From assembly GCA_041306185.1 (NCBI GenBank), contig JBFZFV010000060.1, forward strand, positions 1 through 46,531: a DNA stretch of 46,531 nucleotides, written 5' to 3'. Below the pieces are notes generated by a model. The model ran no database searches. It was given only the letters and a program-made list of their open reading frames with translations, and had not been told where the DNA came from. A program made the translations under genes and the position numbers. The DNA comes from Candidatus Zixiibacteriota bacterium. Lineage in GTDB: Bacteria; Zixibacteria; MSB-5A5; GN15; PGXB01. Positions 6,693 through 42,611 of the stretch are shown here, piece by piece (the stretch's first letter is position 1; each line of letters begins with the position of its first letter).

Positions 6693-6954
6693 GCCTTTCT
6701 TATACGTTTAAAATTCGGAAGGTTCAAATTCCTGTCATATTATCGCCAATTACGAATAAATAACCGAGGCGAAAAACGGCGGTCTGCGAAAAATCCAAAA
6801 AGGGCTTGATTTTGGTGCGTTCTATTTAATAGATTGAATTGAAAATAACAGGTATTCCGTTGGGGGTGGCTTGACGCCTGAGATCATACCCCCATGACCT
6901 GATCCGGATAATACCGGCGTAGGAAAACGGAATTGCGCATTTGCAGCGCCTTTG

Positions 6955-6997
6955 TCCACTATGCCCGTGTTGTTCGGGCAGGTGGCGATTTTTTTTG
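6955..6997 (+). terminator. Intrinsic terminator or attenuator hairpin plus T8 tract, immediately upstream of the TonB-dependent receptor RBS.
   Basis: Stem CCAC(TA)TGCCCG / CGGGCAGGTGG with loop TGTTGTT, followed by TTTTTTTT, then GAAAGGAG and the ATG at 7011. Confidence 0.55.
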
Positions 6998-7010
6998 AAA
7001 GGAGTTTGCG

Positions 7011-9482: not shown

Positions 9483-9485
9483 CGC

Positions 9486-15843: not shown

Positions 15844-16170
15844 TTGGCCCGTCATAGTCTGAAGGGGAGTAAGATTATTCAATCCCTTTTAAAATCCGGA
15901 AAAGGCAGACGAAGCGGGCATTTGATTTTGTATCACCAAAGGCTGCCTGAATTCGCAAACGATTACGCCGGGGCTTATTTAATTCCGAAAAGTGCGGGGA
16001 CCGCAGTGGAACGGAATCGTCTGAAGCGGTGGCTTCGGGAGGATTTTCGGTTGCTGCAAAAGGAACATCCGATTTACGGAGCGTTCATTGTTCGCTTTTC
16101 CGGGACGGCGGCCGAGGTGGTTCACGGGGATTTGAGCGAATCTCTGAAGAAATTGATGGAATCGATTTAA
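15844..16170 (+). CDS. rnpA: Ribonuclease P protein component.
   Basis: [10 protein letters not shown] motif and conserved position after rpmH. TTG start 2 nt after the rpmH stop. Confidence 0.85.
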
Positions 16171-16174
16171 GTCG

Positions 16175-16426
16175 ATGGCAGTTAAGAATATATCAATATT
16201 CAGTTATCCCTTTCTGGCGATAATTTATATCTATCGATACACTCTCTCACCGATAATCGGAAACCAATGCCGGTTCTATCCGACCTGTTCCCATTATGCC
16301 GAAGAAGCTTTGAAAGAGCACGGAGCGCTCAAGGGTATCTGGCTGGCAATCAAGAGGATAGGCCGATGTCACCCCTGGCATGAGGGGGGTTATGATCCGG
16401 TTCCGGATAATGGGAAGATGGAATAA
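16175..16426 (+). CDS. yidD: Membrane protein insertion efficiency factor YidD.
   Basis: [15 protein letters not shown]...[13 protein letters not shown] signature. Confidence 0.9.
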
Positions 16427-16440
16427 ACGAGGATAGTTCA

Positions 16441-18210
16441 TTGGAAAAGAAAACGATTATTCTGGTAGTGGCGCTGGGGCTTCTGGTAATATTCTGGGTC
16501 CCGATAATGACAAAACTGGGGCTGATTGAACCCCCGAAACCGAGGCCGATCGAACAAGAGCAGGCGGCAACCTCACAGCCGCCTCAGGATACTGCCTCGC
16601 AACCTCAGCAACAGTCAGGTTCGACCACTCCGCCTCCTCCCTCGGGAATGCCGCCGAGGGATACCTCGAAGATTGTCAATCTCGAGCAACCGGAACCATT
16701 CGCAGACATCCCCGCCGAGACATTATTCGTGGAAACCAATGTCTGGGATATAGTTATGACTAACCGTGGAGGCGGACCGGTATCGCTTAAACTGAAGGAG
16801 TATCACTACTATCATCAGGAAGACAGTCTGGTCGAATTGCTTCCGTTTTGCGAACGACCGGTTCCGATGCTGGCTTTTAATAATGGGACTTTTGACGCCA
16901 ATCGTTTGGTTTACGAAACAAGTCTCCAGCCGGGAACTTACCGGGTAACCAGTGATCCGCTGGAAATCACTTTTCGGCATGTCGCCGACAACGGCGGGGC
17001 GATTATCAAGAAGTATCGCTTCTACCCGGATCGCTACGATTATGATTTGATTGTCTCGGGCGACAATATCATGCCGTTCAATTTCGGCAGCGAATATTCT
17101 CTGGTCTGGGATAATGGCTTCATTCCGACCGAACCGGACCCCAACGACGATTACAGTTACTTCTGGGCGATGGCGCAGATGGGGACGGAGCGGGAAAAAT
17201 TTGACGACTACGACGACAATAAGTTCAGCCTGACTCACGACGGTGAAACGCGATGGATCGCCAAGCGGTCGAAGTTTTTCTCGGCGATAATGGCGCCGAG
17301 GTCTCAGTATGGCACGGCGGCCATCGCGACCGGGCAAAAATTCCCGGTAACGATCAACGGGCAGAACATAACCGCCCGGATGCTGTCCATCGGGCTGGAA
17401 ATGGCCCTGCCGTACGCTCAGAATTTCAGCGACAGCTTTTCGGTATTCGCGGGGCCGGTCGATTATGAACTTCTGAAAAATTTCAATCCGGAAGTGACCG
17501 ACATCCTCGATATCGGGACCACTCCGTACGTGGGCTGGATAGTCAAAATATTCGCCGTTCCCATCATGTGGTTATTGCCCCGGATGTACGATTACGTTCC
17601 GAATTACGGGTTCGTCATCCTGCTGTTCGCATTGGCCATCAAGCTGATGACCATGCCGCTTTCGAAACGGATGGTGCGGTCGATGTCGGCGATGCGGGAT
17701 CTTCAGCCTAAAATGGAAGAGCTGAAGAAAAAGCACAAGAATAACCCGCAGGCGCTCAATCAGGCAATGATGAAGCTGTACAAGGAAGCAGGGGTAAATC
17801 CGCTTTCGGGGTGTCTCCCTTACCTGCCGCAGTTGCCCCTCTTTTTCGCGCTGTTCGCGGTGTTTCGCTCGACCGTTCTCTTGCGGCAGGCGCCGTTTAT
17901 TCTCTGGTGGGACGATCTTTCGCGCGGGGCGCAGGCGATAACCGATCCATACATTATCCTGGTTCTTCTGATGGTGGGGCTGATGTTCGTGCAGCAAAAG
18001 ATGACCATGACCGACCCCAAGAACAAGGCGCTGGTGTACTTAATGCCTTTGATTTTCGGGTTCTTCTTCTATAAGGCTTCGGCCGGGCTGGTGCTGTACT
18101 GGACCAGCTTCTCGCTTTTCTCCTGGATCGAACAGCTGGTGTTCGGGCGTCCGAGTCCGGCGGCCTCTATGGGGGCGGCGCCACCCGTGAAATCAAACGG
18201 CGGAAAATAG
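16441..18210 (+). CDS. yidC: Membrane protein insertase YidC.
   Basis: N-terminal TM, P/S/T/Q-rich linker, periplasmic domain, then the conserved 5-TM core (PIMWLLPRMYDY...LMTMPLS...KLYKEAGVNPLSGCLP). Confidence 0.9.
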   Translation: MEKKTIILVVALGLLVIFWVPIMTKLGLIEPPKPRPIEQEQAATSQPPQDTASQPQQQSGSTTPPPPSGMPPRDTSKIVNLEQPEPFADIPAETLFVETNVWDIVMTNRGGGPVSLKLKEYHYYHQEDSLVELLPFCERPVPMLAFNNGTFDANRLVYETSLQPGTYRVTSDPLEITFRHVADNGGAIIKKYRFYPDRYDYDLIVSGDNIMPFNFGSEYSLVWDNGFIPTEPDPNDDYSYFWAMAQMGTEREKFDDYDDNKFSLTHDGETRWIAKRSKFFSAIMAPRSQYGTAAIATGQKFPVTINGQNITARMLSIGLEMALPYAQNFSDSFSVFAGPVDYELLKNFNPEVTDILDIGTTPYVGWIVKIFAVPIMWLLPRMYDYVPNYGFVILLFALAIKLMTMPLSKRMVRSMSAMRDLQPKMEELKKKHKNNPQALNQAMMKLYKEAGVNPLSGCLPYLPQLPLFFALFAVFRSTVLLRQAPFILWWDDLSRGAQAITDPYIILVLLMVGLMFVQQKMTMTDPKNKALVYLMPLIFGFFFYKASAGLVLYWTSFSLFSWIEQLVFGRPSPAASMGAAPPVKSNGGK

Positions 18211-18220
18211 AACCTTATCC

Positions 18221-19630
18221 GTGGCCGGTAAATCAGTGCATGATACGTACGACCGCGAAGCGATCGCGGCTATAATTACCCCTCCCGGCGAGGGAGGGAT
18301 CGGGGCGATCCGCATTGCCGGGAACGGCTCGCACGAAGCACTGCGGGCAATATTCCGTCCCATCCATAGTCCAGGCGACAAATGGGAAAATTTCAGGCTG
18401 TACTACGGACACATGGTCGGGTCGGACGGGGAGGTCATCGACGAAGTCACCGCCGTGACCATGCCGGAAGATCAGTCGTACACCGGGCAGGAGCAGGCGG
18501 AAATATTCTGCCACGGCGGACAGGTGGTCCTGCGAAAAATTTTGGCAGAAATTACCGGACGGGGGATTCGTCCGGCCGAACCGGGAGAATTCACGCGGCG
18601 GGCGTTTCTTTCCGGGAGAATCGATCTGGCCAAAGCCGAAGCGGTGGCGGAACTGATCGCATCGAAGACCGAATATTCCTACAGCGTCGCGAAGAAGAAT
18701 CTTCTGGGGCAAATGTCGGATTATATCAACGATATCAGGGAAAACGCGATTCAACTTCTGGCGGAAATCGAGGCCTCGGTGGATTACCCCGAAGAAGACC
18801 TCGAACCGGCCGAACAGCTTAAACTGCTCGATCTAAACGACCTGATAATTAGCAAAACCAATGAACTGGCAATGACTTATCGCGGCGGGAAAATCATCAG
18901 GGAAGGATTCAATATCGCCATTGCGGGACGGCCCAACGCCGGGAAATCATCGCTGTTTAATCTCCTGCTGAATCAGACGAGAGCGATTGTGGCTCCGGTA
19001 CCGGGGACTACTCGCGATTATCTGACTGAATGGATCGACCTCGAAGGGATTGCCGTATCATTAACCGATACCGCCGGGCTAAGAAAGAAATCCGGGGAGA
19101 TTGAGAAGCTGGGGCAGAAAGCGGCACTGGAGATAATGAACCGGTCGGACTTGATTGTCTGGATTGCCGATGTTTCGCGCAAGCGTTGGACCGGAGAGCT
19201 TAAAACGGACCTGAAAGATTTCCCATATAGAGATAAGTTATTGATATTGCTGAACAAAGTCGACCTGATAGATGAGGCGTCGACATCCTACAAAAAACCG
19301 GCAGAAGCCCTGAGCAGAGCCCTGTATCTCTCCTGCAAGACCAAAAAAGGATTCGCGGAGCTGAAAAAAGAACTTCTTCGGCGAATCAAATCCGAAATGC
19401 CGGATCTGACCGACCGCCTGGTGGTAACTTCCGAACGCCACAAGCAGAAACTCGATATCGCCGGGAAAGCGTTTGAGAAAGCCGGGGAGCTGCTTCACCA
19501 GGGAGAATCTCCGGAGATAATCGCATTTGAGCTGAAGTCGGGAATCGACGCTATTGACGAAATCACGGGGCGTATATATAATGAGGAAATTTTAGACCGG
19601 ATCTTCGCGCAGTTCTGTATCGGGAAATAA
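18221..19630 (+). CDS. mnmE: tRNA modification GTPase MnmE.
   Basis: N-terminal domain (IAAIITPPGEGGIGAIRIAG), G domain (GRPNAGKSSLFN, DTAG, NKVD) and C-terminal CIGK. Confidence 0.9.
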   Translation: MAGKSVHDTYDREAIAAIITPPGEGGIGAIRIAGNGSHEALRAIFRPIHSPGDKWENFRLYYGHMVGSDGEVIDEVTAVTMPEDQSYTGQEQAEIFCHGGQVVLRKILAEITGRGIRPAEPGEFTRRAFLSGRIDLAKAEAVAELIASKTEYSYSVAKKNLLGQMSDYINDIRENAIQLLAEIEASVDYPEEDLEPAEQLKLLDLNDLIISKTNELAMTYRGGKIIREGFNIAIAGRPNAGKSSLFNLLLNQTRAIVAPVPGTTRDYLTEWIDLEGIAVSLTDTAGLRKKSGEIEKLGQKAALEIMNRSDLIVWIADVSRKRWTGELKTDLKDFPYRDKLLILLNKVDLIDEASTSYKKPAEALSRALYLSCKTKKGFAELKKELLRRIKSEMPDLTDRLVVTSERHKQKLDIAGKAFEKAGELLHQGESPEIIAFELKSGIDAIDEITGRIYNEEILDRIFAQFCIGK

Positions 19631-19668
19631 CTTTTCCGTAAGAAATGCAAATAATCCGTGAGGACGAA

Positions 19669-19684
19669 CGTTTCACGTGAAACA
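19669..19684. promoter_or_regulatory. parS centromere-like site, 15/16 match to TGTTTCACGTGAAACA.
   Basis: cGTTTCACGTGAAACA palindrome in the mnmE-mnmG spacer, abutting the mnmG ATG. Confidence 0.75.
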
Positions 19685-21567
19685 TGCGACAGCCAGATTT
19701 TGACATAATCGTTATCGGCGGAGGGCACGCTGGCGTAGAAGCGGCCCTGGCCGGGTCCCGCCTGGGAAAAAAAGTCGCCCTGGTGACTATGGACAAGAGC
19801 CGCCTGGCGCTGATGTCCTGCAATCCCTCCATAGGGGGCCTGGGGAAATCGCATATTGTGAAAGAGGTGGATGCCCTCGGGGGATTGATGGGAAAGGCCA
19901 CCGATGCCACCGGAATCCAGTTCCGAAGATTAAATCTGTCCCGTGGACCGGCAGTCTGGTCGACCCGGGCGCAGGCGGACCGGATCGGATACAACGAATA
20001 TGTCTGTAAGGCGGTCGAGGATGATCCCAATGTCGAGGTAATCGAAGCGACCGCCGGGGCGATTCTAACCGAGAACAATAAAATTACCGGGATCAAAACC
20101 GAAGAGGGCGAAAGTATCTCTTGCCGGGCCGTGATTGTCTGCACCGGAACTTTTCTCGGGGGGCTTATCCATATCGGAGATAAACAGATAAAAGCGGGCC
20201 GCCGAGGAGAAAAAGCGGCATACCAGCTGTCCGAATCATTCCTTTCACTCGGTTTCGAAGTCGGCCGGCTTAAAACGGGGACCCCTCCTCGGCTTGATGG
20301 CAGAACCATCGACTGGGCGCAATGCCAGATACAACCGGGCGAAGAACCGATTCCGTTTTTCTCTTATAAGACTCTTCCATATCATATTGAGCAAGTCCCG
20401 TGTCACCTTACTTACACTACCGATGAAACCAAGGCCATTATCCTGGCAAATCTGAAAAAATCGGCCATGTTTTCGGGACAGATAACATCAATCGGACCAA
20501 GATATTGCCCTTCGATTGAAGATAAAATCTTCCGTTTCAAGGATAAGCAGCGTCACCACATCTTTCTTGAGCCGGAAGGAAACGGTACCGATGAGATTTA
20601 TCCGAACGGCTTTTCGACCTCGCTTCCGGAAGATGTCCAGCTGGCCGCGGTAAGAACCATAACCGGTCTGGAAGAAGTGGTCATGACCAAGCCGGGTTAC
20701 GCCGTGGAATACGATTACTGCCCGGCCTACCAGATAAAAGCCTCGCTCGAGACCCGGCGGATAGCCGGATTATACTTCGCAGGGCAGTTGAACGGGACTT
20801 CCGGCTACGAAGAAGCGGCCGGGCAGGGGCTGATGGCCGGGATTAACGCTTCGCTCGCTATCGATAACGAACCGCCGCTGGTTCTGGACCGGGCCGAGAG
20901 TTATATCGGGGTGATGATCGACGATCTAATCACCCGGTCGACCACCGAACCGTACCGTATGTTTACTTCGCGGGCTGAATATCGCCTGGCGCTGCGGGAA
21001 GACAACGCCCGCGATCGTTTGTTCAAGTACGCGGAACGTTATGGCCTGATTGATAATAACGATATCGAAAGCTTCGCCCTTATGCAGAGGGAGACCGAAG
21101 CCGAGGTGTCACGCCTGCGGGATGTATTCATCCCTGTTGCCAAACTGGATGGCCTGGCGGAGAGATTCGTCAAGCGGGATGCCATTTCACTGGCGGAGCT
21201 GTTGAAAGTCCCCCGGGTCGGCTATGACCAGATAGAGCAATTTATCCCTAAAGGCGACGGTTTTTCGCATAACCCCGAAATCCGGGAGCGGGCGGCGGTG
21301 CAGATCCGCTACGAGGGATACATCGCCAAGCAGGAGCGGGAAGTGGCCAAGTTCCGAAGGCAAGAGGAAGAAATTATCCCCGGAAATATGGAATTCGCCT
21401 CGCTGACGGGGCTCCGCAACGAAGCTCGGGAGAAATTCACGAGGTTTCGCCCGACATCGCTGGGGCAGGCGGGGAGAATCGAAGGGGTGACGCGGGGGGA
21501 TCTGGCCGCTCTGGCCGTGCATATCAAAAAGTTTCGCACTCGTGAATTTCTATCGGCCGGAGAATGA
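19684..21567 (+). CDS. mnmG: tRNA uridine 5-carboxymethylaminomethyl modification enzyme MnmG (GidA).
   Basis: FAD-binding N-terminus (DIIVIGGGHAGVEAA), full length 627 aa, conserved position. Confidence 0.92.
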   Translation: MRQPDFDIIVIGGGHAGVEAALAGSRLGKKVALVTMDKSRLALMSCNPSIGGLGKSHIVKEVDALGGLMGKATDATGIQFRRLNLSRGPAVWSTRAQADRIGYNEYVCKAVEDDPNVEVIEATAGAILTENNKITGIKTEEGESISCRAVIVCTGTFLGGLIHIGDKQIKAGRRGEKAAYQLSESFLSLGFEVGRLKTGTPPRLDGRTIDWAQCQIQPGEEPIPFFSYKTLPYHIEQVPCHLTYTTDETKAIILANLKKSAMFSGQITSIGPRYCPSIEDKIFRFKDKQRHHIFLEPEGNGTDEIYPNGFSTSLPEDVQLAAVRTITGLEEVVMTKPGYAVEYDYCPAYQIKASLETRRIAGLYFAGQLNGTSGYEEAAGQGLMAGINASLAIDNEPPLVLDRAESYIGVMIDDLITRSTTEPYRMFTSRAEYRLALREDNARDRLFKYAERYGLIDNNDIESFALMQRETEAEVSRLRDVFIPVAKLDGLAERFVKRDAISLAELLKVPRVGYDQIEQFIPKGDGFSHNPEIRERAAVQIRYEGYIAKQEREVAKFRRQEEEIIPGNMEFASLTGLRNEAREKFTRFRPTSLGQAGRIEGVTRGDLAALAVHIKKFRTREFLSAGE

Positions 21568-22208
21568 TTCCGGTGGCCGAAAAACCCTCAAAAGATATTC
21601 CTTTATTCAGCAGTTCCAAGCTGCTATTGCAGTATCTGGACTTTCGAAAGCTCAATCATTACATCGACATGCTTGAAGAGGCAAACCGCCGGATCAATCT
21701 TGTTTCACGTGAAACATACCGGGATGACTTCTATCGTTTCACCGCCGACAGCCTTGTGCCTCTGGCTTTCGGGCATTCCCTGTCAGGGCGTTTTTTCGAT
21801 ATCGGGTCCGGTGGCGGTTTCCCTGCAATCCCTCTCCTTCTGGCCTCCCCGGCTTTGTTCGGGACCATGGTAGAGCGGACACAGAAAAAGGCGCGGTTTC
21901 TCGAGAGCGTTATCGCCTCTCTGCAGATCAATGCGGATGTAATTCCGCTGGATTTCACCGAGGCGGTGCGGACTTTCGACGGTCCGCCCTTTTCATTCGG
22001 GAGCATGAAATACGTCAGGCTCGATTCCCGAATCATGGCCGATGTTAAGAGGCTTTTGGTTTCGGGGGGGAAATTTTTTTATTTTTCCCGAATCGACCAG
22101 TCCTTTCCCAGGGAAATTACTTCAATTCCGCACGAAACGCTGGAATATTATCTCGATGGTACCGATGTAGTTCGCACTTTATCCGTATTTTCTTTCGGGA
22201 CCGCATAA
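21564..22208 (+). CDS. rsmG: 16S rRNA (guanine527-N7)-methyltransferase RsmG (GidB).
   Basis: SAM motif FDIGSGGGFPAIPL. ATGA overlap with the mnmG stop. Confidence 0.85.
   Translation: MIPVAEKPSKDIPLFSSSKLLLQYLDFRKLNHYIDMLEEANRRINLVSRETYRDDFYRFTADSLVPLAFGHSLSGRFFDIGSGGGFPAIPLLLASPALFGTMVERTQKKARFLESVIASLQINADVIPLDFTEAVRTFDGPPFSFGSMKYVRLDSRIMADVKRLLVSGGKFFYFSRIDQSFPREITSIPHETLEYYLDGTDVVRTLSVFSFGTA
21701..21716. promoter_or_regulatory. parS site, perfect 16-bp TGTTTCACGTGAAACA.
   Basis: Exact palindrome inside the rsmG coding sequence (encodes LVSRET). Confidence 0.8.
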
Positions 22209-22296
22209 GATTTTTATTGCCAATCCCTGCAAATTATAATAAGCTGCGTATTATTAAAATTTTAGACCGTTTTTTCCCGCGAGGACTTAAGTAAAA

Positions 22297-23055
22297 GTGG
22301 CAAAAATAATTGCAGTGGTCAATCAAAAGGGGGGCGTGGGTAAAACCACCACCGCGATCAATCTGTCGGCCTGCCTGGCCATGGCGGAACTGAATACTCT
22401 TTTGGTCGATTTCGATCCCCAGGCCAACACTACCTCCGGGGTCGGGTTCGACAAGGCGAAATTGGAGCATTCTGTCTATGATGTCCTGGTGGGGAGCAGG
22501 ACTTTCGCGGAAATCATTCTCGCCACCGACCTCGATCATCTGAAACTGGCGCCGTCGAACATTGCTCTGGTCGGGGCCGAGGTGGAGATGGTGCCGATTG
22601 CATCGCGCGAGCATATCCTGGCGCGGACGATTGCACCTATCGTGGACAAGTATGACTACATTATCATCGACTGCCCGCCGTCGCTGGGGCTTTTGACCCT
22701 CAACGCGCTCTGCGCCGCGAATTCGGTCCTCATACCGATCCAGTGCGAGTACTACGCGCTCGAGGGATTGAGCCAGCTTCTCAATACCATACAACTGGTG
22801 CAGAACAATCTCAACCCGTCGCTCGAAATCGAGGGGGTCCTGTTGACCATGTTCGACAGCAGGCTGAATCTGGCGCGCCAGGTGGCGGAAGAGGCTCGGA
22901 AATTTTTTAACGACCGGGTGTACAGCACGGTCATCAATCGCAATGTCCGGTTATCGGAGGCTCCCAGTTTCGGCAAGCCGATCATCATGTACGATATCTT
23001 GTCGACCGGAGCGGAAAATTATATGGCGCTGACCAAGGAGGTATTGAGCCGATGA
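22297..23055 (+). CDS. parA: Chromosome partitioning ATPase ParA/Soj.
   Basis: Deviant Walker A KGGVGKTT and typical ParA length and motifs. Confidence 0.92.
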   Translation: MAKIIAVVNQKGGVGKTTTAINLSACLAMAELNTLLVDFDPQANTTSGVGFDKAKLEHSVYDVLVGSRTFAEIILATDLDHLKLAPSNIALVGAEVEMVPIASREHILARTIAPIVDKYDYIIIDCPPSLGLLTLNALCAANSVLIPIQCEYYALEGLSQLLNTIQLVQNNLNPSLEIEGVLLTMFDSRLNLARQVAEEARKFFNDRVYSTVINRNVRLSEAPSFGKPIIMYDILSTGAENYMALTKEVLSR

Positions 23056-23906
23056 GCGGAAAGGTCGTGTTGGGGCGCGGACTGGAAGCCCTCATACCGA
23101 AAATAGAAAAGAAGGTCGAGGAAGGTACTTACGGTACAGTGCAAGAGATCGCGCTCGAGAAGATCGTGCCGAACCCGATGCAGCCGCGGAGGCAGTTCGA
23201 CGAAAAGGCGCTTGAGAGCATGGCCGAATCGGTCAAGAGCCAGGGGGTGCTGCAGCCGGTCCTCGTCCGTAAGAAAGATGACAAGTTCATTTTGATCGCC
23301 GGCGAAAGAAGATTCCGCGCGGCGAAACTGGCCGGGCTCAAAGCGGTCCCGGCGATTACCCTAGAACGCAAAGACGAAAGCGAAATGCTTCAGATGGCCC
23401 TGGTCGAAAATATCCAGCGGGAGGACCTCAATCCGATGGAGGAAGCCGAGGCTTACCGGCAGCTGGTCGACGAGGCGGGACTGACTCAGAACCGGATCGC
23501 CACCCAGGTCGGCAAAAGCCGCACCGCCATAGCCAATACCTTGCGGCTGTTGAATCTTCCGGACAAGATCAAGACTTTTATGAGGGAAGGAAAACTGACC
23601 GAGGGGCACGCCCGGGCGATTCTGGCCCTCGATAACGACCTGGCCCGGGTCCGCCTGGCCGAGAGGATCGTGGCCGAGAGTTTGTCGGTCCGGACCGCCG
23701 AAGATTCCGTGAAGAGGGTTAAGCGCCGCAAGCTTATTCCGAAAAAGAGAATACCGGCCATGGTCGATGCCGAGAATTATTTGAAGCAGCTTCTGGGGAC
23801 AGGTGTAAAAATATCGACCGGGTTGAAGAACGGAAAGATTGAAATCGAGTTTTACGGCGAGGAGGACCTCGATCGCATTCTCGATTTGTTCAGAAGGATT
23901 AGTTAG
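23052..23906 (+). CDS. parB: Chromosome partitioning protein ParB/Spo0J.
   Basis: ParB box GERRFRAA, HTH region and a C-terminal dimerisation domain. ATGA overlap with parA. Confidence 0.92.
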   Translation: MSGKVVLGRGLEALIPKIEKKVEEGTYGTVQEIALEKIVPNPMQPRRQFDEKALESMAESVKSQGVLQPVLVRKKDDKFILIAGERRFRAAKLAGLKAVPAITLERKDESEMLQMALVENIQREDLNPMEEAEAYRQLVDEAGLTQNRIATQVGKSRTAIANTLRLLNLPDKIKTFMREGKLTEGHARAILALDNDLARVRLAERIVAESLSVRTAEDSVKRVKRRKLIPKKRIPAMVDAENYLKQLLGTGVKISTGLKNGKIEIEFYGEEDLDRILDLFRRIS

Positions 23907-23912
23907 GCAGGT

Positions 23913-24707
23913 ATGCCGCAATCGAAATATTACAGCCTGCTTCTGGTTCCTGACGGGGTCGAAAACCCGCACGGGATTAAAATGCGGGCGTGGATGTTCA
24001 AAACCATCGTGGTTTTCTTTGCGCTATTGTTCGTGGGGTTGATCTTTTTCTTTTCATTTTACGGGAAAATCCTCGCGCGGGCCTCGATGGCTTCGGAATT
24101 GATTAAAGAGAACGAAGAGCTGAAACGGTACAAATATAAACTGACTCTGCTTGAAGAAAACATGAAGGAAACCCGCGAGCTGGTGTCGCGGATTTCGGCG
24201 CTGGCGGGAGTCGATTTTCAGATTCCGGAAATCCCGCCCGATTCCATCATTTTCGCGGAAATGGTTCAGACCAAACCGGCGGTTTTGGAACGATCTCTGG
24301 AGGTAAGCGTAAACATACCTGATGGTCTTCCGGTCGAAGGTTTCGTGACCCGGGGATTTTCGATCGAGCCGGATGACTATCATCCCGGAGTCGATATTGC
24401 CGGAGAAATCGGGACTACGATTCTGGCCACGGCCGGAGGGACGGTTTCTTTTGTGGGTGAAGACAGTGTCTATGGAAAGGTAGTGATAATCGATCATGAA
24501 AACGGGTTGTCGACCGTATACGGTCACAACAGCGAAATTCTGGTCGAGGTAGGACAGGAGGTTTTGGTCGGCAGCAGGGTGGCATTGCTGGGGAATTCGG
24601 GTAAATCGACCGCGCCTCATTTGCATTATGAATTAAGACAGGATGGAAAACCGGTAAACCCTTTAAACTTTATGTCGGAATATGAAGTACTCAGCAAACA
24701 AGAATGA
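23913..24707 (+). CDS. Membrane-anchored M23 (LytM-type) peptidase with a coiled-coil segment.
   Basis: N-terminal TM, coiled coil, and M23 catalytic motifs HPGVD (HxxxD) and HLHYELR (HxH). Confidence 0.85.
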   Translation: MPQSKYYSLLLVPDGVENPHGIKMRAWMFKTIVVFFALLFVGLIFFFSFYGKILARASMASELIKENEELKRYKYKLTLLEENMKETRELVSRISALAGVDFQIPEIPPDSIIFAEMVQTKPAVLERSLEVSVNIPDGLPVEGFVTRGFSIEPDDYHPGVDIAGEIGTTILATAGGTVSFVGEDSVYGKVVIIDHENGLSTVYGHNSEILVEVGQEVLVGSRVALLGNSGKSTAPHLHYELRQDGKPVNPLNFMSEYEVLSKQE

Positions 24708-25363: not shown

Positions 25364-26362
25364 ATGTCTGTAAAAACCGACGACCTCCAAGCAGTAGAAC
25401 AACTTAATTCATCATACAATCATATCAAATCCGAAATCGCCAAGGTCATTGTCGGCCAGGATAAAGTAATCGAGCAATTATTAATTGCACTATTGTCCGC
25501 CGGACATTGCCTGCTGGTCGGGGTGCCGGGACTGGCGAAAACTCTGCTGATTTCCACGCTGGCGAACGTTCTTGATCTTAAATTCAATCGGATACAGTTC
25601 ACTCCCGATTTAATGCCATCCGACATTACCGGTACCGAAATTATCGAAGAAGACCGGTCGTCCGGTAAGCGGGCGTTCAAATTCGTTAAGGGGCCTGTAT
25701 TCGCGAATGTGATTCTCGCCGATGAAATTAACCGGACTCCGCCGAAAACACAGGCGGCATTGTTGCAGGCGATGCAGGAGCACGAAGTAACCGCGGCCGG
25801 AGAGACTTACACTCTGGAAGAACCCTTTTTCGTCCTGGCGACCCAGAACCCGATTGAGCAGGAAGGAACCTATCCTCTCCCCGAAGCCCAGCTCGACCGG
25901 TTCATGTTTAATATTTTTGTCGATTATCCTTCCGAAGCGGAGGAGCAGCAGATAGTCAAGAGCACCACCGTTATCCCCGAGCACAAGCTCGATAAGCTAT
26001 TGACCGGTAATAATATAATCGATTTCCAAAGGCTCGTTCGGCGGGTCCCGGTATCCGATCATTTGATTGGCTACGCCGTCGAACTGGCTCGGGCCACTCG
26101 TCCCGAAAACGGCTCACTTGATTTTATCAAGAACTGGGTTTCCTGGGGAGCGGGACCTCGCGCCTCGCAATACATGATCCTCGCGGCCAAGACCAGAGCG
26201 ATTCTGGATGGCCGGCCGACTCCGGGTCCTGAAGATGTCCGCTTTGCGGCTCTGCCGGTATTGCGTCACCGGATTGTGACTTCGTTCAACGCCGAGGCCG
26301 AAGGAATCGACACCCGCGCCATCGTGAACAAGTTATTGGAGACGGTAAAGCCGCGAGGCTGA
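25364..26362 (+). CDS. MoxR-family AAA+ ATPase.
   Basis: Walker A GVPGLAKT, Walker B VILADEINR and a MoxR-type C-terminus. Its usual DUF58 partner lies 6.5 kb downstream. Confidence 0.88.
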   Translation: MSVKTDDLQAVEQLNSSYNHIKSEIAKVIVGQDKVIEQLLIALLSAGHCLLVGVPGLAKTLLISTLANVLDLKFNRIQFTPDLMPSDITGTEIIEEDRSSGKRAFKFVKGPVFANVILADEINRTPPKTQAALLQAMQEHEVTAAGETYTLEEPFFVLATQNPIEQEGTYPLPEAQLDRFMFNIFVDYPSEAEEQQIVKSTTVIPEHKLDKLLTGNNIIDFQRLVRRVPVSDHLIGYAVELARATRPENGSLDFIKNWVSWGAGPRASQYMILAAKTRAILDGRPTPGPEDVRFAALPVLRHRIVTSFNAEAEGIDTRAIVNKLLETVKPRG

Positions 26363-26385
26363 GAATCTTTCGAATCGAATTTCAA

Positions 26386-26413
26386 GGCAGGCTTATCGCC
26401 TGCCTATTTTTTT
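26386..26413 (+). terminator. Rho-independent terminator after moxR.
   Basis: GGCAGGC-ttatc-GCCTGCC followed by tattttttt. Confidence 0.7.
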
Positions 26414-26561
26414 GTGCAATCAATACCTGGCTTATCCTGTTTGCTGGCATAAGATTGGATGGCATATAATGGATTTTTGAAGTGCATTTTCGTACGCGAT
26501 TTATTATAATCCATTCAAACTTGGGCGGATATAAAAATGAACCATAAACAGGAGGTTTTGT

Positions 26562-27275
26562 ATGGCTGAAGAACAGGTCGGCTGCGGAAGGCCTACCGGC
26601 TCCGTGGTGGGGGAACCCGCTGCAGATACCGCTGCCGAACAGAAACCGACCTCCGGAGAGGAGAAGCACATGGTAACGGCAAGGGTCGGGGCCAAGGCCC
26701 CCGATTTTGCGGCTCCCGCCTATCACCACGGGAAATTTATCAATGTCAAGCTCTCGGATTACCTCGGCAAATGGGTGATGATCTGCTTCTATCCGGGCGA
26801 TTTCACGTTTGTCTGACCGACCGAATTGTCGACGGTCGCCGGCAAGCTTGATGAATTTAAGGAACTCGGAGTCGAAATACTTTCGATTTCAACCGACAGT
26901 CAGTTCGTCCATAAAATCTGGGACGAAGAAGAACTCAAGAAAATGACCAAAGACGGCATCCTATGGCCGATGATTTCCGACGGATCCGGAGCAATCGGCA
27001 AGGTGTACGGAGTGTACGACGAGGCCGGAGGGATCGACGTGCGGGGAAGATTTTTGATCGACCCGGACGGAGTCATCCAGGCGATCGAAATCCTCACGCC
27101 GCCGGTTGGGCGGAAAGTGAGCGAATCGATTCGCCAGGTGAAAGCCTTCCAGCATGTCCGTAAGATGAAGGGGGCGGAAGCCTGTCCGGCCGGATGGGAA
27201 CCGGGCCTGCCGACTTTGAAACCGGGTCCGGACCTGGTGGGGAAAGTCTGGAAAGTCTGGAAACCGACGGAATAG
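26562..27275 (+). CDS. Selenocysteine-containing 2-Cys peroxiredoxin (AhpC/Prx1 family; PrxU-like). TGA at 26814-26816 is read as Sec.
   Basis: Translation FYPGDFTFV-[TGA]-PTELSTVAG matches the Prx active-site motif FYPLDFTFVCPTE, with TGA exactly at the peroxidatic Cys. The reading frame continues through the conserved core into a resolving Cys (EACPAGW). AGGAGG RBS before the ATG at 26562; an alternative start at 26670 gives [13 protein letters not shown]. The track splits this into 26562..26816 and 26826..27275, same frame. Confidence 0.75.
26818..26838 (+). promoter_or_regulatory. Candidate bacterial SECIS hairpin, 2 nt downstream of the in-frame UGA.
   Basis: CGACCG-aattgtcga-CGGTCG forms a 6-bp stem with a 9-nt loop, which is where bSECIS elements sit. 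Confidence 0.4.
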
Positions 27276-27313
27276 TCCTTAGCGAAATTCGTATTTTCGA
27301 CTACGTTATTATT

Positions 27314-27349
27314 ACGGCGTCAGGAATAAAGCCCTGCCGCCGTTTTTTT
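27314..27349 (+). terminator. Rho-independent terminator after the peroxiredoxin.
   Basis: GC-rich stem (acggcgtcagg...ccctgccgccg) followed by ttttttt. Confidence 0.6.
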
Positions 27350-27453
27350 GTGAATTCATCCTCGGTCAAACCCCCTTGCCAAAAATGGATAATTTGTTAT
27401 ATTTATTGGTCTCTTTATCAATTTAATTAGGCGAATTTGAGCGGGAGTAGATT

Positions 27454-29808
27454 ATGTGTTTCACAAAAACCCTGAAAGCATTTTCCCTCGCGGTTGCATT
27501 TTGTTTCTTGAATCCGATGTCGTCTCGGTGTACCGACAATTTTTCGTTCACTGACAAAGAAACGTTTAATCCGGAAGATATTTACTGGCAGGATGGGATG
27601 GGCATTCCGGGAGTGAATGGCGACGTCAATGCCATGATTGTCTATAAAGGCAACCTGATCGTCGGGGGCAGTTTCAACATTGCAGGAAACGAAAGGGCCC
27701 AGAGCATTGCCATGTGGGACGGCCGGGAATGGAGATCTATAGGTGTAATCGAATATTCGGCCGAGGACAATTGGGGGGTTGTTTTTTCATTTACTGAACA
27801 CAAAGGTAACCTAATCGTGGGCGGGACCTTTGGAATCGCCGGCGGAATTGAATGCCGGAATATAGCATCATGGAACGGGAAGGAATGGTCACCGGTTGGT
27901 GGCGGAGTCGATAAAGAAGTCCGGGCTTTGACTGTATACAAAGGCCAGTTGATTGCCGGCGGCTATTTTGGTGAAGCAGGCGGCGTCGCAGCCAATAATA
28001 TTGCGGCCTGGGAAGGGACAAATTGGCGTCCGCTCCAAGTCGGGACCAATAATCATGTGATGTCGTTAATGGTGTACAATGACATGCTCATTGCCGGAGG
28101 TTCCTTCGATAGCGCGGGCAATATTCCAGCCGAATACATTGCTGCATGGGATGGCGAAGTTTGGAATACGCTCAATTCGGAATTCGATCTTACCGTCTAT
28201 GCGCTGGAAACGTATAAGGGCTGTCTTGTTGCCGGAGGAATATTTTCCGGGGGTATTGCTCAATGGGACGGTAAGACCTGGTCCTATCTGCAATCCGATT
28301 CCGGTGTTGCAGTTCAAACCTTGTGTAAGTTCGACGGAGAATTGACTGTCGGGGGGTATTTCAGTCAAATCGGAGAAATAGCAGCAAATAAAGTGGCGTC
28401 GTGGAATGGGCATAGATGGAAGGCACTGGGGAATATTGCTGCCGTTTTCGTTTGGGATTTGGAGGTATATGACGGGGAATTGATTTGCGGCAGCGGCTTG
28501 ACTCGTGGGCCGTATTGCTGGGACGGGGAAAACTGGGAGCAAATGGGTGACGGTATCAATGAACGGGTCACGCAGTTTTTCGAATACAACGGAAATTTAA
28601 TCGTCGCCGGATGGTTTACTCATATTGGCAATATAAAAGCGAATGGAATTGCGTTATGGAATGGCGAGGAATGGCTTGCCATGGGTAAAGGACTTAATGG
28701 TGATACCAGAGCCCTGGCCGTTTTCAAAGACACCCTGATAGCCGGCGGAAGATACTACGATTATGATCCTAATGAATATTGGTATCTTTCCAAATGGGAC
28801 GGCGAATCATGGGTAAAGATTGAAACTGCGCTTGATGGTCAGGTGAACGCCCTTACGGTATATAATGATCGATTGATTATCGGCGGAAGATTCAATACGG
28901 CAGGAATAGAAGATACTCGCGGCATAGTCTCATGGGACGGTAATGAATGGTTTCCGCTTGGGAGCGGTCTTGACGGGCGCGATTTATTTGAGTTGTATGT
29001 CTATGGCGGTGATTTGATCGCGGCGGGAAGTTATATATTTCAATCACCATCAAACGCGCGGGTGATAGCGAAATGGAATGGAGTCGAGTGGTCAGCGATG
29101 GGAATCTATCCGTTTAGTCCGAAATTAAAAGTTAGAGCCCTCACTGAATTTGAAGGAAATCTGATTGCGTGCGGAAATTTGGAGCAATCCATTGCTCATA
29201 CGACTGAATTGAAATCCTGGGATGGAACCGATTGGAATTTTATCGACTATCTGGATACAGCCGAGGTATTAACTGCCGGTGTCTTTGACGATCATCTGGT
29301 TATTGGAGGGGATTTCGATCTCACCGAACGCAGCGTTAAGGACAACCTGTTGTCATGGGAGAATGGAGAATGGGAAAAATTCGGCTCCGGCCTAAATGGT
29401 TATGTTAGGACATTTTTTACCTATCAGGATAAATTGTATGTCGGTGGTAATTTTACGACCGCCGGGGATAAGGTCTCGCCATACCTTGCGGTATGGACCA
29501 AGCAGCCGACCGATATCGATGACGAAAGTACCCCGGTTCTGCCTCGGGAATTCGCGCTGAATCAAAATTACCCTAACCCCTTCAACCCCACTACGAGAAT
29601 TTCGTTTTCACTTCCGGTGCGGGGTCATGTGACGCTCAGCGTCTACAATATCATGGGGCAGAAGGTGGCGACGCTTGCTGATGGAGTATTCGGAGCCGGG
29701 ACTCACGATGTTACCTGGGATGCCTCGGAATTTTCCAGCGGAATATATTTTTGCCGCCTGGCCGTCGGAGACTTCGAACAAACCCGGAAGATGGTGCTGG
29801 TGAAGTAG
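27454..29808 (+). CDS. Secreted 14-repeat Kelch-like beta-propeller protein with a T9SS C-terminal sorting domain.
   Basis: Signal peptide. Fourteen repeats of about 47 aa with consensus G.N..V.AL.VY.G.LI.GG.F..AG....N.IA.WDG..W..LG. The C-terminal 85 aa (29551-29805) are QNYPNPFNPTTRISF...SGIYFCRL...RKMVLVK, a type-A T9SS CTD. Confidence 0.85.
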   Translation: MCFTKTLKAFSLAVAFCFLNPMSSRCTDNFSFTDKETFNPEDIYWQDGMGIPGVNGDVNAMIVYKGNLIVGGSFNIAGNERAQSIAMWDGREWRSIGVIEYSAEDNWGVVFSFTEHKGNLIVGGTFGIAGGIECRNIASWNGKEWSPVGGGVDKEVRALTVYKGQLIAGGYFGEAGGVAANNIAAWEGTNWRPLQVGTNNHVMSLMVYNDMLIAGGSFDSAGNIPAEYIAAWDGEVWNTLNSEFDLTVYALETYKGCLVAGGIFSGGIAQWDGKTWSYLQSDSGVAVQTLCKFDGELTVGGYFSQIGEIAANKVASWNGHRWKALGNIAAVFVWDLEVYDGELICGSGLTRGPYCWDGENWEQMGDGINERVTQFFEYNGNLIVAGWFTHIGNIKANGIALWNGEEWLAMGKGLNGDTRALAVFKDTLIAGGRYYDYDPNEYWYLSKWDGESWVKIETALDGQVNALTVYNDRLIIGGRFNTAGIEDTRGIVSWDGNEWFPLGSGLDGRDLFELYVYGGDLIAAGSYIFQSPSNARVIAKWNGVEWSAMGIYPFSPKLKVRALTEFEGNLIACGNLEQSIAHTTELKSWDGTDWNFIDYLDTAEVLTAGVFDDHLVIGGDFDLTERSVKDNLLSWENGEWEKFGSGLNGYVRTFFTYQDKLYVGGNFTTAGDKVSPYLAVWTKQPTDIDDESTPVLPREFALNQNYPNPFNPTTRISFSLPVRGHVTLSVYNIMGQKVATLADGVFGAGTHDVTWDASEFSSGIYFCRLAVGDFEQTRKMVLVK
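27570..29500 (+). repeat. Array of 14 tandem Kelch-like repeats of about 140 nt each (protein-coding).
   Basis: The W(D/N)G..W...G motif recurs 14 times at about 47-aa spacing. Approximate coordinates. Confidence 0.6.
29551..29805 (+). other. T9SS type-A C-terminal sorting domain (Por_Secre_tail-like) of the Kelch propeller protein.
   Basis: NYPNPFNP...L.VYN..GQ.V.....G....G.H.V.WD....SGIYF.R....KMVLVK at the extreme C-terminus. Confidence 0.8.
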
Positions 29809-29865: not shown

Positions 29866-30017
29866 ATGGTTCCGTTGTCCTCACTATGATTGTTTATATA
29901 TAAACCACTGTCCTGATATCAATTGACAAGTTTTGTTGTTTAATCTTTCTTTATCCAGATCATTTGGCATCAGTCGTTAATCTTCTAAACCAAAACTTTT
30001 TAAACTGGAGGAGTACT

Positions 30018-31619
30018 ATGTGCAGGTCGCTTAAGGTGTTTTGTGCACTGGTAGCGCTGGGCTTTGCTTTCATTTGTGCTATTGCTGTTGATGCCGAAAA
30101 CGGTGCCAGCGGACAAGCAATCCCGGTCAATCATTCATATAATTCGGTTGATTCCAGGTACGATGGATTGGTCGGGTACTGGAATTTCGATGAAGGTATT
30201 GGCGATATGGCCTATGACCACAGCGGAAATAACAATAACGGAATTTTGCGGAACGGGCCCGGCTGGGCCGCGGGTATTTCAGGGCATTGCCTGGAATTCG
30301 ATGGGATCGACGACTTCGTGGAAATCCTCGATGCCCCAGGACTGGATATTAGTGGAACTGAAATTACCTTCACGGCGTGGGTAAAATCTCCGGCATATCA
30401 TGATTTAGGCTGGATCATGGGAAAGGGGCGGGCAGGTGACTGGAATGAAATGGTCTGGTGGCTACTACCCAGAAGCAATGGTTCCGTCCGATATGCCATT
30501 AAATCAGGAGGATCGACAATCGAGCAACTGGATATTCCGGTCGGTTTGACTCCGGAAGTCTGGCATCATGTCGGGGTAGTGTACGACGGGTCATATATGC
30601 GATTTTACATCGACGGCAGTGAGGCCGATAATGCTCCGAAAACCGGAAACCTGAATACGAACGACGCCTCGATCATCATCGGTTGGGACGCCTGGGCTTT
30701 ATCGAACTACTATTTTGGATCGATCGACGAGGTGAAAATATATTCCAGGGCCCTATCTCCCTCCGAAATGGAAAGCGAATACAGACTGAATATGCCGGCA
30801 CTTTATCTCAATTTTGATGAAGCATCCGGCGATATCGCTTTCGATCAAAGTGGTAACGGAAATAACGGAACTCTGACCGGCGGGACAACCAGGGCATCTG
30901 GTATATCAGGGAGGGCCGCTCAATTTGACGGTATCGACGATTATGTGATTATCCCGGATGCGGTCAGTCTTGACATTTCGGGATATGAAATCACCTTTAT
31001 GGCCTGGGTATATTCCTCGCACTATAATGATTATGGCTATATCATGGGCAAAGGAGAAGTCGGTCCCTGGGAAAATATGGTTTGGTGGCTTTTACCCAGA
31101 ACCAGCGGCGCCGTACGCTACGCCATTAAGTCGGGTGGATCGACCATAGAACAACTGGAAATTCCGGCAGGGCTGACAACCAATGTATGGCATCACACAG
31201 CGGTGGTGTATGACGGTTCCGAAATGAAATTTTTCCTCGACGGTGTCCAGAAAGATTCCGCCCCGAAAACCGGGTTGCTGGATGTAAACGACGCGCCTAT
31301 TTACATGGGTTTGGATGCCTGGAATCCGAGCCACCATTACCTGGGATTGATTGATGAAGCAAAGGTTTTTGCGGCGGCATATCCGGAAATAAAACTAAGA
31401 GAGCATTTTTTTCAGAAAAGATGCGGCGATCTGGACGGAAACGGCATTATCAACATTCTCGATATCATAGATCTCGTAAATTATAAGTTCAAAGGGGGAC
31501 CGGCTCCGGAAGACTTGGGGGTGGCCGATTGTGATGGAAATGGAAGCCTGAACGTTCTTGATATAGTAATGATGGTGAATTATAAATTCAAGGGAGGCAC
31601 GAGGCCGGTCTGCATGTGA
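30018..31619 (+). CDS. Secreted protein with two tandem LamG/ConA-like lectin domains (Laminin_G_3-like) and a C-terminal type-I dockerin. No T9SS CTD.
   Basis: GGAGGA RBS and signal peptide (MCRSLKVFCALVALGFAFICAIA). Two copies of about 205 aa each with L.GYWNFDEG.GD.A.D.SGN.NNG...G and WHH..VVYDGS. The C-terminus (31419-31616) is DLDGNGIINILDIIDLVNYKFKGG + DCDGNGSLNVLDIVMMVNYKFKGG, two Ca-binding-loop segments. Track start 29964 is less likely. Confidence 0.85.
   Translation: MCRSLKVFCALVALGFAFICAIAVDAENGASGQAIPVNHSYNSVDSRYDGLVGYWNFDEGIGDMAYDHSGNNNNGILRNGPGWAAGISGHCLEFDGIDDFVEILDAPGLDISGTEITFTAWVKSPAYHDLGWIMGKGRAGDWNEMVWWLLPRSNGSVRYAIKSGGSTIEQLDIPVGLTPEVWHHVGVVYDGSYMRFYIDGSEADNAPKTGNLNTNDASIIIGWDAWALSNYYFGSIDEVKIYSRALSPSEMESEYRLNMPALYLNFDEASGDIAFDQSGNGNNGTLTGGTTRASGISGRAAQFDGIDDYVIIPDAVSLDISGYEITFMAWVYSSHYNDYGYIMGKGEVGPWENMVWWLLPRTSGAVRYAIKSGGSTIEQLEIPAGLTTNVWHHTAVVYDGSEMKFFLDGVQKDSAPKTGLLDVNDAPIYMGLDAWNPSHHYLGLIDEAKVFAAAYPEIKLREHFFQKRCGDLDGNGIINILDIIDLVNYKFKGGPAPEDLGVADCDGNGSLNVLDIVMMVNYKFKGGTRPVCM
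30170..31400 (+). repeat. Tandem duplication of the LamG-like domain (two copies of about 620 nt, roughly 60% aa identity).
   Basis: Motifs FDGIDD[FY]V, ITF[TM]AWV, MGKG..G.W.NMVWWLLPR, RYAIKSGGSTIEQL[DE]IP.GLT..VWHH.[GA]VVYDGS are collinear between residues about 55-265 and 265-470. Confidence 0.7.
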
Positions 31620-32908: not shown

Positions 32909-33805
32909 ATGGCGACCGATTACCGCAGATACCTCGATCCCGAAATCGTCGGCAAACTGAAAGGGATGGAACTCCGCGCCCGGATGGTAGTGGAGGGATT
33001 CATCGCCGGGCTGCATAAGTCTCCGTACCACGGCTTTTCGGTGGAATTCGCCGAACATCGTCAATACATGCCGGGAGACAACATCCGGAATATCGACTGG
33101 AAAGTTTTCGCCAAGTCTGACCGCTACTATATCAAGCAGTACGAAGAAGAAACCAATCTGAAAGGCTATCTCCTATTGGACTGCTCGGCCTCGATGGGTT
33201 ACACTTCCGGCGGGACGGTCAAGCTGGAATATGCTTCGCTCCTGGCGGCATCACTGTCGTTCATGATGCTGAAACAGCGGGATGCGGTGGGACTGGTGAC
33301 CTTCGATGAAAAGATTCGGCGCTATATTCCTCCGCGGTCGAAATCGGGGCATATCCATGTGATGCTTCAGGAACTGGCCAACCAGAAAGCCTCGGACAAG
33401 ACCGACATCGCTTCGGCTCTCCACGAAATGGCGGAACGGATTTCCCGCCGGGGGCTGGTGGTTATCTTCTCGGATTTACTCGACGACCCTCACGAAATAA
33501 TATCGGGGTTGAAGCATTTCCGGCATAAGAAGCACGAAGTCATTCTTTTTCATATCCTCGATCCCCGCGAGCGGGATTTCGCTTTCCCGCAGGAAGCGAT
33601 TTTCAAGGATTTGGAAACCGGCGAAGAACTGACCACCCTTCCGTGGCAGATCCGCAAACACTTCAAAGAAGCAACCGAGGCTTTTTCATCCCGGATTGCC
33701 GCGGAATGCCGGCAGAGTCGGATCGATTATCACCTCATCGACACTTCGATGCCGTTCGACAAAGCCCTCTACGCCTTCCTGGCCAAACGGGAACGGCTGT
33801 ATTGA
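32909..33805 (+). CDS. DUF58 (vWA-like) protein. The usual MoxR partner.
   Basis: YHGFSVEFAEHRQYMPGDNIRNIDWKVFAKSDRYYIKQYEEE DUF58 signature. Confidence 0.85.
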   Translation: MATDYRRYLDPEIVGKLKGMELRARMVVEGFIAGLHKSPYHGFSVEFAEHRQYMPGDNIRNIDWKVFAKSDRYYIKQYEEETNLKGYLLLDCSASMGYTSGGTVKLEYASLLAASLSFMMLKQRDAVGLVTFDEKIRRYIPPRSKSGHIHVMLQELANQKASDKTDIASALHEMAERISRRGLVVIFSDLLDDPHEIISGLKHFRHKKHEVILFHILDPRERDFAFPQEAIFKDLETGEELTTLPWQIRKHFKEATEAFSSRIAAECRQSRIDYHLIDTSMPFDKALYAFLAKRERLY

Positions 33806-42559: not shown

Positions 42560-42577
42560 GACCGCATAAACTACTGT

Positions 42578-42611
42578 GGGGAGGGGAGTCACCCTCCCCG
42601 CAGGTTTTTTT
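42578..42611 (+). terminator. Strong rho-independent terminator.
   Basis: GGGGAGGG-gagtca-CCCTCCCC followed by gcaggttttttt. Confidence 0.85.

Follow-up and report, generated by a model that had tools for sequence, protein, structure and literature searches.

An intact gene with a single in-frame UGA in a Zixibacteria contig very probably encodes the selenocysteine-containing peroxiredoxin PrxU

The stretch of DNA analyzed here, hereafter the window, is a 46,531-nucleotide contig (JBFZFV010000060.1) of a Candidatus Zixiibacteriota bacterium, and our subject is the locus at positions 26562-27275 of its plus strand. We conclude with high confidence that this locus is an intact, monocistronic gene, prxU, for a selenocysteine (Sec)-containing, thioredoxin-dependent peroxiredoxin of the PrxU type with a Prx1/AhpC fold. 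A first-pass annotation of the same DNA had already proposed a PrxU-like replacement of the peroxidatic cysteine by Sec. That reading is borne out by a family-profile score above the curated cutoff, a TGA codon shared by 81 of 81 genes, a covarying selenocysteine insertion sequence (SECIS), identical sequences in independent assemblies, and public records that hold the gene as fragments only. The features that delimit the gene are the following.

26562..27275, plus strand: prxU coding sequence, 237 codons and a TAG stop, with the predicted Sec at codon 85
26814..26816, plus strand: UGA, predicted selenocysteine codon 85 at the peroxidatic position of PxxxTxxU, from the translation, structure alignments and TGA in 81/81 genes
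26550-26555, plus strand: Shine-Dalgarno sequence AGGAGG, 6 nt 5' of ATG 26562, read directly in the sequence
26385..26405, plus strand: terminator-like hairpin (8-bp stem, 6 G-C pairs) and T-run after the upstream moxR, whose open reading frame (ORF) ends at 26362
27314..27349, plus strand: intrinsic-terminator-like hairpin (27314-27343) and U-run, about 40 nt past the stop codon

From ATG 26562 to TAG 27273-27275 the locus is one reading frame, in which the TGA at 26814-26816 is the sole in-frame stop. The ORF list cuts it into 26562..26816 (84 amino acids) and 26826..27275 (149 amino acids, with a TTG start), and both the sequence and its translation agree with the earlier observation that the two ORFs share a frame and are parted by this TGA alone. 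Genes of this kind are routinely severed by gene finders, and the expectation that automatic annotation would break this one was equally accurate, as public records contain just the 84- and 149-residue pieces: both are called in contigs from other samples, and the NCBI record holds the 149-residue piece only. The 237 codons contain no frameshift or second internal stop, and 45 of the 45 family-invariant residues are retained. Beyond the stop codon, the terminator region 27276-27356 folds with a minimum free energy of -21.8 kcal/mol (z = -2.78), while the terminator-like hairpin on the other side sets prxU apart as a transcription unit of its own. With its own ribosome binding site and flanking terminators, prxU is a single intact monocistronic gene.

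Protein queries and profile searches were made with Cys substituted for the TGA. The 237-residue product matches the NCBIfam equivalog NF040737 ("peroxi_PrxU, thioredoxin-dependent peroxiredoxin") with 382.8 bits (E = 6.2e-115), against a curated cutoff of 270 bits, and the alignment is nearly full length, pairing residues 6-236 with profile positions 2-232 of 233. Matches to the Pfam families AhpC-TSA (PF00578, 118.4 bits) and 1-cysPrx_C (PF10417, 28.1 bits) place it in the same broad group. The AhpC equivalog TIGR03137 reaches 196.5 bits, under its cutoff of 272, and no AhpF-like gene flanks prxU. The best solved-structure matches are typical 2-Cys Prx/AhpC proteins (E ~1e-48), and alignments to 4fh8 and 1we0 set the TGA column at the peroxidatic Cys of FYPLDFTFVCPTE, in agreement with the position assigned to it by the first-pass annotation. 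The full active-site set (P78, T82, U85, and R161) is present in the window protein. Furthermore, an AlphaFold2 model of a Cys-type homologue, P0010 (not the window protein), has a Prx core with a predicted local distance difference test score (pLDDT) above 90 and a target template modeling score (TM-score) of ~0.9 against the typical 2-Cys Prx structures 5zte, 1qmv, and 1n8j. On the strength of this model the PrxU family is predicted to have the Prx1/AhpC typical 2-Cys fold. By analogy, the window protein would be a thioredoxin-dependent peroxidase with Sec in its mature form.

The UGA is a property of the family and not of this contig alone. We scanned 185,579 species-representative genomes and took the best 80 full-length relatives (60-78% identity), which together with the window gene make a set of 81; every one of them has TGA at the peroxidatic column. 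As the query carried Cys, the ranking of relatives could not have favored TGA. The 80 relatives span Ignavibacteria, Zixibacteria, Spirochaetota, Desulfobacterota, Acidobacteriota, Chloroflexota, Calditrichota, Marinimicrobia, and others, and across the set the residue following Sec is Ala in 50 genes, Pro in 30, and Ser in 1.

A detailed comparison of the RNA downstream of the UGA enabled us to define a SECIS by covariation. The 48 nt from each UGA were aligned across the 81 genes, ungapped and in codon register, with column 1 at position 26814. Two hairpins are at issue in this region.

26827..26844, plus strand: SECIS minihelix, stem 26827-26833/26838-26844 with a GGUC tetraloop at 26834-26837, identified by covariation
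26818..26838, plus strand: hairpin put forward in the first-pass annotation, CGACCG (26818-26823)/CGGTCG (26833-26838), truly complementary and in competition with the SECIS

The stem of the minihelix (columns 14-20/25-31), which in the window gains an extra pair, U26826-A26845, contains 73 doubly compensated cells, compared with 21.8 +/- 3.5 in shuffled alignments, a value that none of 500 shuffles reaches. Its covariation score of 0.336-0.425 compares with 0.10-0.14 after shuffling (again 0/500); slid controls reach no more than 0.142, to be set beside the value of 0.336. Double changes occur at four pairs. All four Watson-Crick types are present at pair 15-30; among the 78 distinct sequences, pair 18-27 is G-C in 48, A-U in 23, C-G in 4, U-A in 2, and unpaired in 1, and the outer bases of the loop (21-24) are G-C in 59 and A-U in 19, without a single unpaired case. 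Pairs 15-30, 18-27, and 21-24 link third-codon positions, so that their correlation lies beyond the reach of protein coding. The inner loop bases G22 and U23 (G26835 and U26836) are invariant. On this comparative evidence the family hairpin at 26827-26844 is a real SECIS, kept by compensatory change. It would be expected, by analogy with characterized elements, to bind SelB and to direct Sec insertion.

The hairpin proposed earlier behaves quite differently. Its hexamers are complementary as claimed, and columns 5-10/20-25 are paired in 87% of the family, a figure that arises because four of the six pairs never vary; at the other two, which do, pairing fails in 28 and 30 of the 78 distinct sequences. 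Its covariation score of 0.063 is matched by shuffled alignments (0.056, with 59 of 500 reaching 0.063). Published rules for bacterial SECIS elements (PMC13188914) describe an apical loop of 3-9 nt, an upper stem of 4-16 bp, a minimum free energy at or below -7.5 kcal/mol, a G among the first two loop positions and a UGA-to-loop distance of 16-37 nt. The family hairpin falls within these limits in loop size (4 nt), stem length (7-8 bp, broken once in the window by an A·C mismatch), loop opening (GG), and spacing (17 nt, 26817-26833). The earlier hairpin agrees in its 9-nt loop and 6-bp stem, but its loop (AAUUGUCGA) opens with AA and begins only 7 nt from the UGA. On covariation and the consensus rules together we reject 26818-26838 as the functional SECIS; the complementarity noted in the first-pass annotation therefore stands, and the role given to it does not. 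As the earlier stem consumes the GGUC loop, the two hairpins are mutually exclusive.

Several observations weigh against Sec insertion at this locus. The minimal SECIS of the window has a folding energy of -5.1 kcal/mol (with the A·C mismatch uncounted), a value that ranks seventh weakest in the family of 81 and exceeds the consensus threshold of -7.5, while the competing hairpin, at -8.1 kcal/mol, is the stabler of the two in the window. Rfam, scanned with a permissive E-value, returned no SECIS family, just chance miRNA and snoRNA matches. Single-sequence folding of the region after the UGA is no better than that of shuffled sequences (z = -0.3 and -0.9), and as such folding is uninformative the choice between the hairpins falls to comparative analysis. 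Finally, the 46.5-kb window has no tRNA, and no selA, selB, or selD among its annotated ORFs. The host may nevertheless be expected to possess the Sec machinery, an expectation that prxU itself creates.

The weakness of the window SECIS has a simple origin, as the A·C mismatch stems from a codon change from Ala91 to Thr. Column 19 is A in the window (26832; ACG, Thr91) and G (GCG, Ala91) in 79 of the 81 members, and the resulting mismatch of A26832 with C26839 adjoins the loop-closing pair. Ala91 is conserved in at least 90% of the family, and Thr91 of the window departs from this consensus. Restoring G at column 19 brings the energy to -12.3 kcal/mol, which is also the value for the closest relative (L001). 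Across the family the median is -9.6 kcal/mol and 60 of the 81 hairpins lie at or below -7.5, in comparison with a median of -3.8 kcal/mol for the hairpin of the first-pass annotation. It is possible that the A·C variant lowers the efficiency of Sec insertion.

Could this variant instead be the first sign of decay? Under this explanation prxU would be a pseudogene, either a Cys-type peroxiredoxin killed by a TGC/TGT-to-TGA nonsense mutation or a selenoprotein gene whose SECIS is eroding. The mismatch, at a position where 79/81 members have a G-C pair, a SECIS among the weakest of the family, and the treatment of the locus as two fragments in public annotation all speak in its favor. Conversely, the TGA is ancestral for the whole clade, and the frame is otherwise open and keeps its 45 invariant residues. 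One other member (L079) alone shares the A·C mismatch, which arose there independently, and six members have hairpins still weaker than that of the window; together with the retained invariant residues, these weaker hairpins indicate a tolerated variant rather than decay. Moreover, prxU, including its TGA, is identical in contigs of two Joint Genome Institute (JGI) samples, 3300027726 and 3300009082 (L081 and L082), and one of these assemblies comes from a different strain, set apart by 17 SNPs over 6,450 bp, all of them outside prxU. We therefore consider a pseudogene improbable.

Somewhat less probable again is a low-level, SelB-independent, near-cognate read-through of the UGA as Cys or Trp, which would yield mainly a Cys-type peroxiredoxin or a truncated peptide, with the hairpin merely slowing the ribosome. 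The weak SECIS of the window copy and the lack of observed Sec machinery in the window would fit such a scheme. However, the invariant G-U in the loop, the covarying stem, and the spacing, which resembles that of fdhF, point to a specific protein-RNA contact, and if the lineage made no use of Sec, TGC or TGT should have become fixed, as has happened in the Cys-type relatives.

The last two explanations may be set aside briefly. An assembly or sequencing error at 26814-26816, concealing a true TGC or TGT, is a general possibility for any contig, and a negligible one here given the identity of the whole gene in both JGI samples and the TGA of all homologues. An alternative genetic code (4 or 25), giving TGA the meaning of Trp or Gly, might seem to draw support from the 120 best database proteins, 85 of which have Trp at the peroxidatic position (27 are true Cys forms), but it is hardly credible: three well-defined full-length genes of the window end at TGA, namely mnmG (21565-21567) and those for the M23 peptidase (24705-24707) and the LamG/dockerin protein (31617-31619), which excludes both codes; Trp is unfit as a peroxidatic residue; and a conserved SECIS would be needless under code 4. 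The database Trp is a gene-caller artefact, which arises when code 4 is applied to a Sec-UGA on a short contig. These entries (within P0002-P0120) read FTFVWATE or FTFVWPTE, a systematic misannotation of PrxU in public metagenome protein sets. Taken together, the 81/81 TGA, the identical assemblies, and the stop usage of the window lead us to reject sequencing error, pseudogene, and alternative code alike.

With the Sec-containing PrxU as the preferred reading, a mechanism can be proposed. The UGA at 26814-26816 would be read as Sec, with the SECIS minihelix starting 13 nt past the first base of the UGA. The GGUC minihelix, with its exposed G-U, would recruit the SelB-GTP-Sec-tRNASec complex to the ribosome, as in Escherichia coli fdhF. 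In the folded protein, the selenolate of Sec85, within the PxxxTxxU/Arg site, would attack the peroxide and be converted to a selenenic acid, which may then be resolved to a selenenylsulfide by Cys208 of the partner subunit or by Cys8 of the N-terminal arm. Thioredoxin would reduce the selenenylsulfide, thereby regenerating the enzyme. The dependence on SelB, the identity of the resolving Cys, and the choice of thioredoxin as reductant are all proposed here by analogy with related systems.

The cysteines that could take part in resolution, and the conserved motif in which one of them lies, are located as follows.

26580..26615, plus strand: conserved N-terminal motif G7-C8-x-R10-P11-T12-G13-x-V-V-G17-E18, from the 81-gene alignment
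26583-26585, plus strand: Cys8 codon, candidate extra redox or resolving Cys, from its invariance in the family
26784..26786, plus strand: Cys75 codon (ICFYPGD), a family-specific invariant 10 residues before Sec, from both alignments
27183..27185, plus strand: Cys208 codon in EACPAGW, the canonical C-terminal resolving Cys, from structure alignments

The first-pass annotation had placed AGGAGG, ATG 26670, EACPAGW, and the complementary hexamers correctly, and its resolving Cys is supported by the alignment of EACPAGW with the CPAGW motif of 4fh8 and 1we0. Two of its views on the N-terminus have to be revised: that the start was ambiguous, and that the extension preceding the core was of low complexity. 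The PrxU profile spans residues 6-236, and the extension holds Cys8 in a GCxRPTG motif; since the profile covers the extension and Cys8 is invariant, ATG 26562 is the start and the extension is functional. Within the motif, Cys8 is present in 81 of 81 genes, G13 in 79, G7 in 77, G17 in 74, T12 in 73, P11 in 63, and R10 in 62, and Cys8 is invariant too in a second, independent set (80 metagenome proteins and the window protein). Beyond the motif lies a charged linker of some 20 residues that varies among members. In the P0010 model the N-terminal motif has pLDDT values of ~61-64, and the linker falls below 50 and is predicted to be disordered. ATG 26670, which the first-pass annotation regarded as the canonical start, is codon 37 and has GAGGAG 6 nt on its 5' side (26656-26672); a minor short isoform that begins there and lacks the N-terminal Cys arm is conceivable.

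Only 27 of the 81 members preserve the C-terminal resolving Cys, 49 having Thr in its place, and the N-terminal Cys is kept also in Firmicutes Cys-type relatives. The presence of two extra invariant cysteines, together with the frequent loss of the C-terminal one, suggests from sequence conservation that PrxU proteins use a non-canonical resolving or relay Cys. We tentatively raise the possibility, without favoring it, that PrxU is a mechanistically distinct subclass, in which Cys8 or Cys75, and not the C-terminal Cys, resolves the selenenic acid of Sec85 or relays electrons. If true, this would account for the loss of the C-terminal resolving Cys in two thirds of the members. A few Prx1-type enzymes have been noted to possess an N-terminal resolving Cys; in the searchable literature we found no description of the invariant N-terminal Cys motif.

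The genes around prxU fit the stated origin of the contig. In order, the window contains rnpA, yidC, mnmE, mnmG, rsmG, parA, parB, an M23 peptidase gene, a bactofilin gene, moxR, prxU, and genes for secreted proteins with type IX secretion system (T9SS) tails. All named best matches to the window MnmG are Zixibacteria proteins (65-71% identity), and two of the closest PrxU relatives come from Zixibacteria metagenome-assembled genomes. Large secreted proteins with T9SS C-terminal sorting domains, together with a LamG protein that has a dockerin domain, are encoded in a cluster (27454-29808, 29964-31619, 39941-42559, and 43078-45069), and such a cluster of T9SS and dockerin secreted proteins fits a host of the Fibrobacteres-Chlorobi-Bacteroidetes (FCB) group, to which Zixibacteria belong. 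A synteny comparison with the 80 relatives revealed no common neighbors. The genes at 15844-23906 (rnpA, yidC, mnmE, mnmG, rsmG, parA, and parB) form a classic origin-proximal set, and the chromosomal replication origin probably lies nearby.

In Bat-type aerotolerance operons, the gene for a MoxR AAA+ ATPase usually neighbors one for a DUF58/VWA protein. In the window, moxR (25364-26362) and a DUF58/VWA gene (32909-33805) are ~6.5 kb apart, with prxU and two secreted-protein genes between them, and from this arrangement a link of prxU to an aerotolerance locus is possible. Elsewhere, a thiamine pyrophosphate (TPP) riboswitch (Rfam RF00059, 72.5 bits; 6852-6942, plus strand) lies directly 5' of a TonB-dependent receptor gene (7011-9482), which is followed by a sodium:solute symporter gene (9486-10853). 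The region 6852-10853 is probably a riboswitch-controlled operon for the uptake of thiamine or a thiamine precursor.

When every pair of frames joined by a TGA in the window was screened, prxU emerged as the sole selenoprotein candidate. One minus-strand pair, 39968-42592 (389 and 483 amino acids, joined by a single TGA), was considered as a second selenoprotein and rejected: it has no Pfam match. The plus-strand product of 39941-42559 (872 amino acids) has the Pfam T9SS sorting domain and Big_9, and as these matches fall on the plus-strand product alone, the minus-strand pair is a shadow of it.

Recognizing prxU as one gene restores a complete antioxidant enzyme to the annotation. It also flags this Zixibacteria lineage as a probable user of selenocysteine, which bears on selenium dependence and on defense against oxidative stress in bacteria of anoxic sediments. 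The covariation-defined signature of a UGA, 10 nt, a 7-bp stem, and a GGUC or AGUU loop can serve in the re-annotation of PrxU genes, and the invariant N-terminal Cys poses a question open to biochemical test.

A Sec-containing peroxiredoxin, PrxU, was reportedly described in Eubacterium (Peptoclostridium) acidaminophilum by Sohling and co-workers in 2001 (Biol Chem 382:979). Catalogues of prokaryotic selenoproteomes list "Peroxiredoxin (Prx), TxxU" among their standard entries, and a 2006 survey ranked Sec-Prx as the fifth most frequent family, with examples in Syntrophus, Geobacter, Anaeromyxobacter, Alkaliphilus, and others. Both Sec-peroxiredoxins and their curated family model are therefore already established, and prxU leaves current understanding unchanged; what our analysis adds is the covariation-defined SECIS, the resolved start codon, and the invariant N-terminal Cys. 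The window gene resembles the PrxU of E. acidaminophilum and NF040737 in its peroxidatic UGA, its Prx1/AhpC fold, and a full-length profile match that includes the N-terminal extension. It differs from the type in its host, a member of the Zixibacteria rather than an amino-acid-fermenting clostridium. Within the family it has U-P-T-E, as do 30 of the 81 members, instead of the commoner U-A-T-E (50/81), and it retains the C-terminal resolving Cys that most PrxU members have lost.

When compared with typical 2-Cys Prx/AhpC proteins (4fh8, 1we0, 1qmv, and 1n8j), the window protein shares the motif FYPxDFTFV[C/U]PTE and the C-terminal CPAGW, and departs from them in its predicted Sec in place of the peroxidatic Cys, in a 36-residue N-terminal arm with Cys8, and in Cys75. 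The closest comparison for the RNA element is the SECIS minihelix of E. coli fdhF, which comprises nt 15-31 with essential G23 and U24 (PMC8659212). The PrxU minihelix, at nt 14-31, likewise lies directly past the UGA and inside the coding sequence, and its G22 and U23 correspond to G23 and U24 of fdhF. Unlike fdhF, the PrxU consensus is without a bulged U equivalent to U17, and the outer bases of its tetraloop covary as G-C or A-U.

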